Positions 18,886 to 62,274 of a stretch of 64,000 nt of DNA are shown one piece after another. Position numbers and translations under genes: made by a program. Origin of the DNA: Octopus vulgaris (taxonomy: Eukaryota). Positions within the stretch are counted from its first letter, which is position 1, and each line of letters opens with the position of its first letter. The DNA lies in assembly GCA_951406725.2 (NCBI GenBank), contig OX597824.1, forward strand, positions 18,538,001 to 18,602,000. Direction: 5' to 3'. Below the pieces are notes generated by a model. That model was not told the DNA's origin and did no database searches. It saw nothing but the letters and a program-made list of their open reading frames with translations.

Positions 18886-19484
18886 CGCACCCCCCCCCAC
18901 TTCTGCCGCAATATCTTAATCATTTCGCATGCTTCCTTGCTTTCCTTCCGTCTTCACTTTTCTTTTATGAGTGACATTTTTTGCTTTAAATTGCGGTCAA
19001 CTGGAGTGTTTAGCGCAGAAAAATAAGCTGCAGCCTCATCAGTATAAAAGGTAACGAAAGAGTGAAAGGAAATACGAAATAAAAGAACAGAACAAAAGAA
19101 GACATCTTTTTCTTGTACTATTTTTGTTTTAATATAAATTTAGTTCATGTTTTTTTTTTTTTTTATTGGTGAGGAAAATAAATGATGTGAAGTAGGAGGA
19201 GGGAGCAAGAAACTTTAAATAAAGTGAAATTTGTAAAATTCATAAAATAGTAATAATGATGTTTTATTTCGAACATTGCATTCAGTACCATTCATGCATA
19301 CAAATACAAAAATCTTAAAATCTAGAGCTTTACAAAAAACGTGTAGGGTGGGAGATACAAGTTGTATAAAGCGACGCGACGGCTCAAAGACGTTATACAA
19401 TGTATGAAGGGACAAGTTTATGAATTTAAGTAAAAACATACAAATATTATGAAAGTGTGCAATAAAAAAAACTGCAATAATAAG

Positions 19485-20465
19485 GGCAGTGAGCTGACAG
19501 AAACGTTAGCACACCGAAAGAAATGCGTAGCCGTATATCGTCTGCCGTTACGTTCTGAGTTCAAATTCTGCCGAGGTCGACTTCGCCTTTCATCCTTTCG
19601 GGGTCGATTAAATAAGTACCTGTTACGCACTGGGGTCGATATAATCGACTTAATCCGTTTGTCTGTCCTTGTTTGTCCCGTCTATGTTTAGCCCCTTGTG
19701 GGCAATAAAAAAAAAAAAAGAAACATTAGCACGTCGGGTGAAATGCGTAGCCGTATATCATCTGCCGCTACGTTCTGAGTTCAAATTCCACCGTGGTCGA
19801 CTTTGCGTTTCATCCTTTCGGGGTCGATAAATTAAATACCAGTTACGCACTGGGGTCGATGTAATCGACTTAATCCATTTGTCTGTCCTTTTTTGTCCTC
19901 TCTGTGTTTAGCCCCTTGTGGGTAGTAAAGAAATAGGTATTTCCTCTTCCGCTACGTTCTGAGTTCAAATTCCGCCGAGGTTGACTTTGCTTTTCATCCT
20001 TTCGGGGTCGATTAAATAAGTACCAGTTACGCACTGGGATCGATATAATCGACTTAATCCGTTTGTCTGTCCTTGTTTGTCCTCTCTGTATTTAGTCCCT
20101 TGTGGGTAGTAAAGAAATAGGTATTTCGTCTGCCGCTACGTTCTGAGTTCCAATTCCGCCGAGGTCGACTTTGCCTTTCATCCTTTCGGGGTCGATTAAA
20201 TAAGTACCAGTTACGCACTGGAGTCGATACAATCGACTTAATCCCTTTGTCCGTGTCTGTCTCCTCTGTGTTTAGCCCTTTGTGAGTAGTAAAGAAATAG
20301 GTATTTCGTCCGTCGCTACGTTCTGAGTTTAAATTCCGCCGAGGTCGACTTTGTCTTTCATCCTTTCGAGGGTCGATAAATTAAGTACCAGTTACGCACT
20401 AAGGTCAATGTAATCGACTAGTCCCTTCTCCAAAAATTTCGGGCCTTATGGCTAGAGTAGAAAAG
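19485..20465 (+). mobile_element. SINE family B tandem array: four B2-tailed units and a final B1-tailed unit
   Basis: Junctions near 19720 and at 19935/6, 20119/20 and 20299/300; CTGCAATAAT repeated at 19472 and 20474. Confidence 0.9.
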
Positions 20466-21559
20466 AAGAAAAGCTGCAATAATTAAAACGATATATTTAA
20501 AGTGGAAGAGTCCATTTGGGTTGATTAGGTCAAATTATTGCCTTTATTATATGCATGCTTTTCACACATCCGCTAAAGTGCCCCTGTTTCATGTAATGCT
20601 GAGTTCGGAATCTTCAATGAAGAGATCTTTGCTTAGATAGGGCGAGTAATGGCCCAAGTCTTTGAGATGAAACGTATGAGAAATATACTCGTTGTATTTT
20701 ACTAATAGTTTATCTTCCTTATGTTGTAGAACAAACCAGTAAATCGTTTTGATATAATAACGCTCATATCGTAAATGTCTTACGTTAGGCTTTTGTTGGC
20801 CTCGCGAAACCATCTTGCAATTCTTTGCTGGAACATTCTAATTATTTATCCGTCGTACCGGAGCCAAGACATTTAAATGCAATGTTGCAGCTTCACAGTG
20901 ATAGACTTTCAGGTAATGTTACCTCAGAAATTCTTCGGAGGAACCTCTTTTTGTGATCGAACTCCTTTCATTATTAACAAACAATTAATGACCACAAATG
21001 AATATCAAAACTCCTCAGAAAGATATACACGTGTGAAAAATAATTGTTGCATTAAAGATATATAAATAAATAAATATAAATATGTATAAAAATATATGTA
21101 AATATGTATAAATATAAGTACATCTTTCTGGGGAGTTTTGATATTGATTTCCTGATATTAATAATAAAATATTATTAAAAAGTATATATGTATAAAATCA
21201 CTTGTGTTAAATATATAAATACTTTAATATTATTAATAATGTGATACAGTTGAGCACACAATATAAATTCAGTATATAATATTCTCACTGAATATAGTTA
21301 ACTAAAGGTTTATGACAATAAATGAATATATAAAATTCTATTCGTAAATGTATCCCTACCGCTACAGTTGATATGTAATCAAGGCATCTCAGAGTAAATT
21401 TTAGTCACTTCCGAACGAGTCAGAAATTAATAAGAATTTTTAAAAAGCAGTTGTTTCTATCATTATCACTGGGCTATAAATTTTGAAGACGAGGGTTACT
21501 GAATCAAATTGGGACCATTTATTTAACCACGGCAAAAACTGAAAAACAGAGTGTCGGTT

Positions 21560-21805: not shown

Positions 21806-21959
21806 TAAAGATACTGAAAAGCGAACGAAACTTCGGACGTACAGTAAATGAGGCAGGGTGTTAATTGTTTGTGATTAAATAGACAGAGATGTGAGAGATG
21901 GGTGAAAAAGTGCAATATACATACATACATACATACAGACAGACAGACAGACAGACAGA

Positions 21960-22289
21960 TATGTTTCTTTATTAGCCACACAGGGCTGCACACAGACGGG
22001 ACAAATTACAAAGGAGAGCTTTTCTTTTTGGGGAGAAAAAAAAGTGGGATAGGTTTTCGATCAAAAAAGGAGTCGTGAAAAGGAAAGAAAAAAACGATCA
22101 GTAGGGATCGTGTATCACAGAAATATCATGATGTAAAGTATAAAAGGGGAAGCAGATAAGGTTTGTCCGTGGAAAGAAAAGCCTACGGAAAAGAGCACGG
22201 TAACCTCGGTCAATAATGTCACATGTTAACACATTTTTTTTATGAAGTAAATAACTCTCTGTTTTAAATTTTTCCGGGTTCATAGGATT
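21960..22289 (-). mobile_element. Tx1/L1-type LINE 3' UTR, copy a
   Basis: Homologous to 22313-22663, including the ATCCTATGA stop context; bounded by (GACA)n and (GATA)n. Confidence 0.75.
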
Positions 22290-22312
22290 GGATAGATAGA
22301 CAGATAGATAGA

Positions 22313-22840
22313 TTTCTATATTGGCCACGCAGGGCTGAATACAGAAGGGACAAAATACAAAGTAGAGCTTTTCTTTTTGGGAAGAGAAGGAAAAAAAAAC
22401 AAAAAGAAAAGGAGGTCGAATTCCGATCAAAAGGGATCGTGAAAAGAAACAAAAAAAAGTGGGGGCGATCAATAGGGATCGCGTATCACAGAAATGCCAA
22501 TGTAGAAAGGGAAAACAGATTAAGTTTGTATGTGGATAGAAAAGCCTACGGAAAAGACCACGGTAACCTTGGGCAATAGTGTCATGCAAAAAGAAAACAC
22601 ATTACAGTAAGTGGCTCCCTTTTTTCTTTTCGTTTTTTTTCTTTTCTTTTAGTTCATAGGATTATGCGCAAGCTGGCTCCGACATTCATTCATACCATCC
22701 TTGCTACATTCACCCATCTTTTTTGAAGTATTCACTAGACTAAACTGCCCTCTCTATTCTCACCTTCCTCTTCAAGTGATACTTGAAGAAGTTGATGACA
22801 GATTGACCAGAGAGAAGAGTGTTTGTCTCTAGACCTTTCG
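22313..22840 (-). mobile_element. Tx1/L1-type LINE ORF2 C-terminus plus 3' UTR, copy b
   Basis: Minus strand reads KGLETNTLLSGQSVINFFKYHLKRKVRIERAV*SSEYFKK(fs)RWVNVARMV*MNVGASLRIIL*; homologous to 42960-43200. Confidence 0.75.
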
Positions 22841-32244: not shown

Positions 32245-32700
32245 AGATACAAGGCCCGAAATTTTTTTTTTTTTTTTTAAAGAGGGTAGTTAATTACTCC
32301 TATTTCTTTACTACACAGAAGGGGCTAAACACAGAGAAGACAAACAAGGACAGACAAACGGATTAAGTCGATTACATCGACCTCAGTGCGAAACTGGTAC
32401 TTATTTAATAGACCCCGAAAGGATGAAAGGCAAAGTCGACCTCGGCGAAGGTTGAACTCAGAACGTAGCGGCACACAAAATGCCTATTTCTTTACGACCT
32501 ACAAGAGGACAAACAATGACAGACAAACGGATTAAGTTGATTATATCGACCCCAGTGCGTAACTGGTACTTATTTAATCGACCCCGAAAGAATGAAAGGC
32601 AAAGTCGACCTCTAATCACTCCGATCCCCAGTCACAAACTGTGACTTATTTTATCGGCCCCGAAAGGAGGAATGAAAGGCAAAATCGACCACAGCGTTAT
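32245..32700 (-). mobile_element. 5'-truncated B2 dimer (32301-32612) nested in an older B1 copy
   Basis: B1 tail to the left and B1 body to the right; TSD TAATTACTCC (32291) / TAATCACTCC (32613). Confidence 0.8.
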
Positions 32701-36918: not shown

Positions 36919-37491
36919 GTGGAGGCACATGGCTACATGGTTAGAGCAGCGGACTCGCAGTTGAGGGATCGAAGGTTCGAATCTCAGACCAGGCGATGTG
37001 TGTTTTTATGAAAGGCAGCGAGCTGGCAGAAACGTTAGCATACCGGGCGAAATACTTAGCGGTATTTCGTCTGTCGTTACGCTCTGAGTTCAAATTCCGC
37101 CGAGGTCCACTTTGCTTTTCATCCTTTCGGGTTCGGTTAAATAAGTACCAGTTCAAATTCTGCCGAGGTCGACATTGCCTTTCATCCTTTCCAGGTCGAT
37201 TAAATAAGTACCAGTTACGCACTGAGGTCGATATAATCGACTTAATCCGTTTGTCTGTCCTTGTTTGTCCTCTCTCTGTTTAGCCCTTTGTGGGTAGTAA
37301 AGAAATAGGTATTTCGTCTGTCGTTACGTTCTGAGTTCAAATTCCGCCGAGGTCGACTTTGCCTTTCATCTTTTCGGGGTCGATAAATAAAGTACCAGTT
37401 ACGCACTGGGGTCGATGCAATTGACTTAATCCCTTTGTCTGTCCTTGTTTGTCCCCTCTATGTTTAGCCCCTTGTGGGTAGTAAAGAAATA
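36919..37491 (+). mobile_element. Chimera: SINE C head (36919-37010) joined to a B2 multimer (37014-37491)
   Basis: Contains the recurrent AAAGAAATA|GGTATTTCG junction; TTAGAC(AC)nAT on both flanks. Confidence 0.8.
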
Positions 37492-56954: not shown

Positions 56955-57407
56955 TCCCTTATACTGTAGGTACAAGCCCTGAAATGTGGGGGAAGGGATA
57001 TTTATTTCTTTACTACCCACAAGGGGCTAAACACAGAGAGGATAAACAAGGACAGACAAACGGATTAAGTCGATTATATCGACCCCAGTGCGTAACTGGT
57101 ACTTATTTAATCGACACCAAAAGGATGAAAGGCAAAGTCGTCCTTAGCGGAATTTGAATTCAGAACACGACGACGGACGAAATACCTATTTCTTTACTAC
57201 CCACAAGGGGCTAAAAACAGAGAGGACAAACAAAGGGTTTAGTCGATTACATCGACCCCAGTGCGTAGCTGGTACTTATTTAATCGACCCCAAAAGGATG
57301 AAAGGCAAAGTCGACCTCGGCGGAATTTGAACTCAGAACTTAGCGGCAGACGAAATACCGCTAAGCATTTCGCCCGACGTGCTAACGATACTGCCAGTTC
57401 ACCGCCT
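56955..57407 (-). mobile_element. B2 dimer (one head, two units) followed by a B1 tail
   Basis: Recurrent junction at about 57186; B1 tail at 56955-57000. Confidence 0.85.
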
Positions 57408-57519
57408 TATATACTGATGTAGTAATATTTGCTAATTTAATGGGTTTCTAATTTAGATACAGGGGTAGTAATGTTTAGAACCCGAATCAGTCCATACCAG
57501 TGATCTCAGCTTTTTATTA

Positions 57520-61049: not shown

Positions 61050-61212
61050 CTTTTGTGAATATAGCTTTGACCAGAAGGAACTGATGTCATCAGACGGTAT
61101 CCAACGATTATCGGATATATCGACCTTCAAGTGTAACACTGTCACGATCGTCGAGTCAGCAGTGTTGACCAAATTCTCCTGGCTTCCAACTTAACTAATC
61201 ACTATTGCTCCA

Positions 61213-61861
61213 TATTTCTTTACTGCCCACAATTTGGAACGTAACGTCAGACGAAATACCTATTTCTTTACTACCCACAAGGGGCTAAACACACAGAGGA
61301 CAAACAAGGACTGACAAACGGATTAAGTCGATTGTATCGACTCCAGTGCGTAACTGGTACTTAATTTCTCGACGCCGAAAGGATGAAAGGCAAAGTCGAC
61401 CTCGGCGAAATTTGAACTCAGAACGTAACGACAGACGAAATACCTATTTCTTTATTACCCACAAGGGGCTAAACACAGAGGGGACAAACAAGGACAGACA
61501 AACGGATTAAGTCGATTGTATCGACTCCAGTGCGTAACTGGTACTTAATTTCTCGACGCCGAAAGGATGAAAGGCAAAGTCGACCTCGGCGAAATTTGAA
61601 CTCAGAACGTAACGACAGACGAAATACCTATTTCTTTATTACCCACAAGGGGCTAAACACACAGAGGGGACAAACAAGGACAGACAAACGGATTAAGTCG
61701 ATTGTATCGACTCCAGTGCGTAACTGGTACTTAATTTCTCGACGCCGAAAGGATGAAAGGCAAAGTCGACCTCGGCGAAATTTGAACTCAGAACGCAACG
61801 ACAGACGAAATACCGCTAAGCATTTCGCCCGGCGCGCTAACATTTCTACCAGCTCGCCGCC
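61213..61861 (-). mobile_element. B2 multimer: one head, three ~184-bp units and a deleted stub, inside a 14-bp TSD
   Basis: Junctions at 61260/1, 61444/5 and 61628/9; TSD ACTATTGCTCCATA at 61201 and 61865. Confidence 0.93.
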
Positions 61862-62274
61862 TTTACTATTGCTCCATAACCAGCTAGAGACCATCTCTGC
61901 TGCTTCTCCCATCCTGTGCACAGCTACATTTTGCTTTTGTTCTCTTATCTAATGGCATTCTCCATCCTAAATGGACAGGGAATATAGTATGTGTTCAGCA
62001 ATGTAGTGAAAATTAGTTATTTACTTACAATTACGGTTGATTTTATTCGAATAGATAAGCACCAGATGTTTATGGCTGGTTGCCGACAGATTTTTCTGCT
62101 CTGAAAAGGATTTTACCCTATATATGCTGTTCTGTCAGAATTTAAGCGTTGAAAAATATATCCTTCTACTTGTTTGAAATAAAAAAATATTTTAATGTGA
62201 AATTGTCCAGCAACGACGGGTTACTAGGTTAGTGCGTGTGTGTGTGTATGTATTTGTTTGTTTGTTTTTGTTTT

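Follow-up and report, generated by a model that had tools for sequence, protein, structure and literature searches.

Tandem SINE arrays of Octopus vulgaris and their probable origin by self-targeted retroposition

We propose, with a probability of about 0.7, that the tandem arrays formed by a short interspersed element (SINE) of Octopus vulgaris arise by self-targeted retroposition into kin copies, seamless rejoining and subsequent DNA-level duplication. Copies of the SINE that carry one of its two tails (tail B) would insert by target-primed reverse transcription at position 51 (GGTATTTC) of older copies of the superfamily. Tens of thousands of copies bear the marks of this fixed-site, self-targeted route, its intermediates are preserved, and the first step in the formation of SINE multimers thereby becomes testable.

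The analysis starts from one array in a 64,000-nucleotide stretch of contig OX597824.1 (the window) and extends to the whole assembly (G000). The DNA parsed comprised the window, 50 kb of its flanks, a blind choice of 380 kb from ten chromosomes, 200 kb of chromosome C1 selected because it contains arrays, and some 60 loci retrieved through an exact match to the junction. Without a duplicate locus and three others that had been retrieved for different purposes, this yields 90 arrays and 124 single copies; a 26-unit array is also omitted from most statistics. Variants are counted against column-majority yardsticks, and about two thirds of the arrays were chosen through the exact junction, which biases the sample toward well-kept last units.

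The focal array and its fixed junction

The focal element lies on the minus strand (window 61201-61878) and has the architecture given in a preliminary description of this DNA, namely a single head, units of 186, 184 and 184 bp, a 46-bp stub and a perfect 14-bp target-site duplication (TSD). Both TSD copies read ACTATTGCTCCATA, and these identical flanking 14-mers bear out its identification as a TSD-flanked retroposon. The parts are as follows:

61201..61214: TSD copy at the 3' end of the element, identical to 61865-61878; its first 2 nt also fit the tail end
61215..61260, minus strand: stub, 46 bp, a unit start (positions 51 to ~87) joined to the tail end
61261..61444, minus strand: unit 3, 184 bp, with B-box-like motif, core and tail B
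61445..61628, minus strand: unit 2, 184 bp
61629..61814, minus strand: unit 1, 186 bp
61815..61864, minus strand: single 50-bp head with A-box-like motif
61865..61878: TSD copy at the 5' end of the element, 14/14 match to 61201-61214
61621..61637, minus strand: fixed junction, AAAGAAATA joined to GGTATTTC, where tail B ends and SINE position 51 begins; repeated at 61437-61453 and 61253-61269

Each unit begins at SINE position 51 (GGTATTTC) and ends in tail B (...AAAGAAATA), which makes up the last ~65 bp of unit 1 and matches the 3' end of an L1-clade LINE. The head and the unit start pair as a hairpin of 11-13 bp, with the junction site at the edge of its loop. The box-like motifs of the head (A) and the unit (B) are putative Pol III boxes. 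The three units are 97-99% alike; unit 3 shares an identical core with unit 2, and the three differences that set it apart from units 1 and 2 all lie in the tail, within the last 54 bp. The stub has two deletions, one of 6 bp in its part from positions 51 to ~87, and alleles (A64, C223) unlike those of units 1-3; it is likely the remnant body of the original copy, which would have been the target.

The variants of these units had been described as private, which holds only in part. C121 and G127 are rare, and the others occur elsewhere: GATTGTATCGACTCCAG has one further match, at 20234 on the opposite strand, and CTCGGCGAAATTT is found six times in other sampled loci. Across the genome, the 22-mer covering C121/G127 has three occurrences in the focal array and a single other one, on C23, in a tail-A monomer that is unrelated, and a genome-wide search for a young subfamily with the focal variants retrieved none, nor a source copy outside the array. 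The focal insertion is present in DNA runs X2 and X3, where most of the aligned material comes from other copies; neither an empty nor a shorter allele was observed. Only 3 of the 38 longer arrays have a rare variant common to all units; the focal array is one of them and is unusual in this respect, and taken alone it would be compatible with one event from a lost source. Considered together, the shared C121/G127, the lack of an outside source, the tail-only differences of unit 3 and the stub alleles are best fitted by local duplication: the head and stub would represent the original copy that owns the TSD, and a single inserted unit was likely duplicated locally twice.

In the manner of tRNA-derived SINEs, the element falls within 100-600 bp, is dispersed at high copy number (45,255 exact matches to a head 22-mer in the genome), has variable TSDs (14-18 nt in 24 of 33 monomers and arrays) and has a 3' end in common with a LINE. 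ARAGORN detects no tRNA, and Rfam gives no tRNA match for the head, whose box-like motif, like that of the unit, was judged against a consensus. The element appears to resemble the octopus tRNA-derived SINEs OK, OR1 and OR2, and is likely of their kind. The arrays are tandems of partial-SINE units with an extended terminal unit, as in a SINE-derived satellite (sSat), with 2-6 units in 89 of the 90 and 26 units in one. In this 26-unit satellite (L089:870-5750, G000:C22:10,030,870-10,035,750), the inner units are homogenised, certain variant units recur and the head is older. Reads of RNA run X24 lie on both strands, and 74% of them continue into unlike sequence; its one peak of 'begin' positions, at 61625, comprises nine molecules, a weak signal that an alignment edge could explain.

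The preliminary description also noted that the junction recurs in five arrays of the window, as it indeed does: the exact form is found at 19.9, 20.1, 20.3, 37.3 and 57.2 kb in addition to the three occurrences in the focal array, and at 32.5 kb it reads GGCATTTT, with two changes. The sister arrays are:

19482..20480, plus strand: head + B, then the position-18 junction, three further B units and a tail-A unit at the end
32301..32612, minus strand: 5'-truncated B-B
37011..37491, plus strand: head + B-B, with an internal 63-bp duplication
57003..57408, minus strand: head + B-B, units unlike

The last unit of the first sister array (19.5-20.4 kb) belongs to a different family, with tail A, and the same array contains a second type of fixed junction, at head position 18 (AGAA), which has 2,533 exact matches in the genome. 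The 22-mer of the position-51 junction occurs exactly 34,787 times in the genome (control 0), so that junctions are nearly as common as the matching head 22-mer. A chance origin of this count is excluded, and the earlier argument that so fixed a junction is not slippage and demands a mechanism was right.

Units of mixed family and age

An older related family has the same head and core and the other tail (A). Across the 90 arrays, the non-last units carry tail B without exception (176/176), the last unit carries tail A in 39 arrays, and a tail A followed by a position-51 unit never occurs. The inserted units are mostly of one subfamily, as seen from G176, which is present in 69/89 first units vs 10/36 singles. 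Comparison of identity within and between arrays, which had been suggested as a check on one-event copying, shows the units of B-B dimers (n=23) to be no more alike than random pairs, with an agreement at seven diagnostic columns of 0.545 vs 0.526 ± 0.039 permuted. A rare variant is common to both units in 5/51 dimers vs 2-3% of control pairs (37 and 64 of 2,000).

The ages of the units are similarly mixed. In the A-ended arrays (n=39), the core of the last unit is more diverged than that of the first (0.061 vs 0.038, p=0.005); first and last units of B-ended arrays do not differ in age (p=0.74), and over 73 arrays the two ages are uncorrelated (rho 0.11). Divergence of the head in 40 dimers tracks the last unit (slope 0.75 ± 0.24) vs 0.22 ± 0.40 for the first, and within the A-ended arrays alone it follows neither unit, neither slope being significant. 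Since the arrays mix copies of different ages, repeat dating in this genome, along with SINE subfamily calls, is distorted if arrays are taken as single elements.

In the B-A dimers (n=22), unit 1 is B-type (C64 in 17/21, A144 in 20/22) and unit 2 is A-type from position 64 on (T64 in 15/22, G144 in 18/22), with unit 2 the more diverged in every bin beyond 66; an excess of agreement between the units at positions 52-66 (p=0.0015) is gone by 101-140. Some heads of A-ended arrays are B-type: the B-specific G46/C51 head is present in 6/35 of them, as against 0/35 A monomers and 9/27 B monomers, and T22 is found in 12/35 of these heads vs 28/35 A monomers. Such heads imply that the cDNA must often rejoin upstream of the TSD overhang, which would have to proceed by invasion or resection, and we read them as annealing anywhere within head positions ~20-66.

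Adjacent non-last pairs share rare variants in 31/62 cases in arrays of at least three units. With the focal array excluded from both counts, the variants common to the first and second units lie toward the 3' side (22/113 vs 7/98, p=0.01), whereas those common to the penultimate and last units lie toward the 5' side (11/46 vs 4/88, p=0.001). This polarity lends support to the earlier suggestion that arrays grow later by unequal crossover; it would reflect a duplication window offset from the junction, with units beyond two probably derived mostly by DNA duplication.

Probable insertion at the junction and the competing routes

The 3' ends of the tail-B copies provide an independent view of the junction. 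Among the 45 B1 3' ends, 22 run into GG and 17 into GGTA, for which the background is 0.26%; four of the 17 are decayed position-51 units, and the GG or GGTA is often formed by the first letters of the TSD. In B2, the second tail subfamily, 17/21 3' ends run into A, and a C223 tail precedes 6/6 position-18 junctions vs 16/145 position-51 junctions. These contexts together indicate that the 3' end of each subfamily matches the site to which it is joined. In the 380 kb picked blind, a position-51 array is present in 5/16 suitable heads vs 3/~605 other GGTAT sites, a rough 60-fold preference for the SINE's own position 51 that comes from small numbers. Insertion into a repeat at a fixed site is the behavior of target-specific SINE/LINE pairs.

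Further, we found sites with two heads, in which an old head is followed by a piece of 14-21 nt and then a new head. The corresponding pattern, GTATTTCGTCYG-N1-8-AAGGCGGCGAGCTGG (the latter from the new head), occurs 96 times in the genome, a few of these being tandem repeats of one site; the piece measures 15-18 nt in 80/96, and the wider range of N9-30 adds only 51 sites. Of 29 loci examined, 22 consist of an old head or junction, the piece, a full B copy and a position-51 unit, six of them at an existing junction. Between the flanking copies of the piece, 56/83 variable columns match, as against 0.515 after permutation (p=0.0016); about a third of flanking pairs are discordant at such columns, and in one locus (L161) an identical private deletion is found on either side of the insertion. 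At T22, array heads (27/78) resemble outer heads (8/20) and are unlike incoming heads (2/25; p=0.01), with B monomers at 3/27. Two-head sites are rare relative to exact junctions (96 vs 34,787, the two patterns differing in length).

We posit the following route. The RNA end ...AAAGAAAUA-GGUA(U...) would pair with the nicked target strand, as the observed junction pattern suggests, and priming of this kind would favor GGTA(T) sites, above all the SINE's own position 51; the second subfamily, which ends in ...AAAGAAAUA-AGAA, would use position 18 instead. The resulting cDNA would match the target upstream of the site, usually anneal within head positions ~20-66 and then add no second head, so that the outcome would be one head, an exact gain of 184 bp and a regenerated site. 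In a small minority of cases, cDNA that does not anneal would leave the old head, a TSD-sized piece, a full new copy and the old body, the pattern observed at the two-head sites. Additional insertions, together with tandem duplication at the DNA level, would then lengthen the dimers, the duplication being the probable source of the observed variant sharing. More tentatively, and with odds that we place below even, read-through RNA from a copy that has landed in a head could carry the downstream target as a guide and steer the L1-clade machinery to homologues across the genome by RNA-DNA pairing. Were this so, each success would make a new guide-bearing source, the choice of target (position 51, position 18 or the site of the LINE in kin ORF1) would be a heritable, RNA-programmed trait of a subfamily, and the system would constitute natural RNA-guided homing and a general seed for SINE-derived satellites.

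Two other routes were weighed against these observations. In end-to-end template jumping within one insertion, reverse transcriptase would proceed to about position 51, pass by a GGUAU microhomology to the 3' end of the next tail-B RNA, and so on. This explains the B-only non-last units and the unlikeness of units, places the jump at a hairpin loop edge, where an RNA cut or an RT stall is possible, and accounts for the B-type heads on A-ended arrays; moreover, L139, where a single outer TSD encloses a head fragment and a full copy, has the appearance of a genuine RT jump rather than of an insertion into kin. We nevertheless consider it unlikely as the general route: it predicts one age per array, yet last units with tail A exceed the first in age, and the age of the head goes with that of the last unit; old tail-A copies would need to be co-transcribed; and TSD-sized duplications around full copies at the junction are not predicted. 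Somewhat less likely still is the retroposition of one or a few dimeric masters as a whole, with longer arrays produced by unequal crossover, an alternative already raised in the preliminary description. It agrees with the polarity of the longer arrays and with the recurrence of one B1+B2 haplotype pair in several dimers, and some whole-array retroposition is likely, as the arrays would keep the promoter. A single dimeric master fails as the origin, however, because dimers bring together many haplotypes and both families; no two arrays have more than three rare variants in common, a number reached in 6/3,916 pairs; the ages of first and last units are uncoupled; and two separate junctions and insertion intermediates are present. 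Nor do the arrays show the fixed left/right pair, amplified as one unit, of true dimeric SINEs of the Alu type. Since either template jumping or whole-dimer retroposition would leave the same B-type heads, both keep some weight.

Copying of a circular RNA of 184 nt, whose junction would be identical to the genomic one, as a multimer in one event, by rolling-circle reverse transcription, had been put forward for the focal array, and we now regard it as very improbable. It would give the fixed junction, the near-identity of the focal units with their two shared rare variants and the three longer arrays with a rare variant in all units, but mixed units, uncoupled ages and TSD-sized insertions at the junction do not support it. 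Only 2/27 arrays with at least three B units have one haplotype, 39/90 end in another family, the head cannot come from a circle, and a source copy of the focal variants is absent elsewhere in the genome. The earlier observation that the unit has no hammerhead core is confirmed by Rfam and motif scans: CTGANGA is absent on either strand of the unit, scans for hammerhead, HDV-like and twister motifs are negative, and Rfam, at the gathering score for the window and at E<=10 for the focal region, gives no ribozyme, only a chance TLS-PK5 match. The circularised unit folds worse than 100 shuffles (z +1.45), and two units with the head fold no better than shuffles (z -0.82). Non-LTR retrozymes combine tandem units of 150-450 bp, which are present here, with a hammerhead in each unit and a stable self-paired circle, which are absent; to judge by its sequence, the feature is not a retrozyme. 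A DNA-only route, with a 184-bp circle excised between two GGTAT repeats and recombined into other copies, is just as improbable. Its products would have a single head, a fixed junction and units unlike one another, but crossover would be expected anywhere in the 120-bp core, and some junctions carry short duplications from slippage that resemble RT initiation; the allele pattern of the B-A dimers (n=22), which keep their types throughout, largely refutes it.

Several individual loci merit separate description. In the right flank, L072:7790-8005 (minus strand; window equivalent 81,790-82,005) has an old tail-A-type head, 16 nt and a full young head, and is cut off downstream by another repeat. 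Head-only mini-satellites are present at G000:C10:17,996,024-17,996,501 (64 bp x 8) and G000:C22:20,052,833-20,053,637 (84 bp x 10), apparently through expansion of two-head insertions. L088:473-651 (G000:C22:10,020,473-10,020,651, minus strand) is a headless B unit at a non-SINE site with GGTATTTCCTC at both sides, as if the cDNA had annealed to a look-alike TSD overhang. In L024:1222-1747, two inverted B copies meet across a short spacer, and each runs 16-26 nt into a second unit; a search for RT starts inside unit 2, a sign of RNA read-through, gave ambiguous cases in L024 and L125.

The partner LINE and known systems

Matches to the tail alone lead to a 5.18-kb LINE and to 1.78-kb ORF1-only relatives. 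Tail B matches the LINE 3' end in 40 of the last 47 columns, and from this shared tail the LINE likely mobilises the tail-B SINE. Its ORF2 (L196:1674-5069) encodes 1132 aa with endonuclease, RT and zf-RVT domains (APE-RT) and has L1 ORF2p as its best PDB match (E 1e-65); ORF1 has a zinc knuckle, and the element is L1-like by PDB match and ORF1, an atlas search having returned no clade name. Copies stack head to tail with ~15-nt TSD-like spacers (22 copies on C7), in the following region:

G000:C7:100,088,851-100,126,278: LINE and ORF1-only arrays (also L197, L198, L191-L196)

One copy has the 1132-aa ORF2 open, and different element types share one locus-specific spacer. Three LINE loci have a common end point, which lies within the decayed ORF1 of a kin LINE. 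B1, B2 and the LINE use different target sequences, which points to specificity from RNA pairing; several related LINEs may be involved. A second family also shares the tail. Another repeat, which ends in a tail-B-like segment and (CTAT/CTGT)n, is found at window 21,931-22,584 (minus strand), where two copies lie in tandem, and at L030, L153, L163 and L169, and may represent the 3' UTR of an additional partner LINE.

Each proposed step has a precedent among SINEU-3/Tx1-Mar, R2Ol and R1/R2. The crocodilian SINEU-3 has an L1/Tx1-type partner and a fixed site in a Mariner element, and, as in the octopus, the fixed site lies in an abundant repeat and sequential insertions give tandems; its copies are separated by a TSD and target Mariner, whereas the octopus SINE targets its own head and joins seamlessly, with two subfamilies using two sites that match their own 3' ends (PMC4494074). 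In R2Ol, pairing of a 3' read-through with the target aids accuracy and efficiency (PMC6795142). In R1/R2, annealing of the cDNA to the upstream target gives precise 5' junctions, and R1 stacks in TSD-separated tandems, as does the partner LINE (PMC2718515; PMC11331408). R1/R2 are autonomous, with site-specific endonucleases and a host-gene target, in contrast to a non-autonomous SINE that targets itself and for which RNAs bearing one type of tail go to different sites (PMC2718515). Template-aimed, seamless joining is so far best documented for R1/R2, and our results suggest that an L1-clade ORF2 may also be aimed by the template 3' end and form homologous 5' joins without a seam, a point of relevance to gene insertion by means of retrotransposons.

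The architecture of one head, 5'-truncated units and one TSD is shared with the SINE satellites of squamates (PMC10702118) and the TSD-(SINE)n-TSD multimers of Scapharca broughtonii (PMC11481361). For these, the authors suggest mainly unequal recombination and mention same-locus insertion without a test (PMC10702118; PMC11481361); the bivalve multimers are ~3% of copies (PMC11481361), unlike the octopus junctions, which approach the heads in number. Animal non-LTR retrozymes likewise form dispersed tandem arrays of 150-450 bp units (PMC7229834; 10.64898/2026.07.22.740005), with a hammerhead and a self-paired circle (PMC7229834), in contrast to the octopus unit, which has neither and whose units are of mixed origin; the octopus element also has a putative tRNA-type head and an L1-clade tail, as against the Penelope link of retrozymes (PMC7229834; 10.64898/2026.07.22.740005). 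A search of the openly accessible literature found neither self-targeted seamless SINE insertion nor these arrays; the arrays are not mentioned in the portions consulted of the main text of a 2026 octopus repeat annotation (PMC13282606), nor in the passages matched in 10.1101/2023.05.16.540928 and PMC13093632.

In X15, from organism F, contig depth over window 61,241-61,354, which is not a copy number, is far lower on the tail-B and junction bins than on the core bins when compared with X2 and X3, hinting that the expansion of tail B is lineage-specific.
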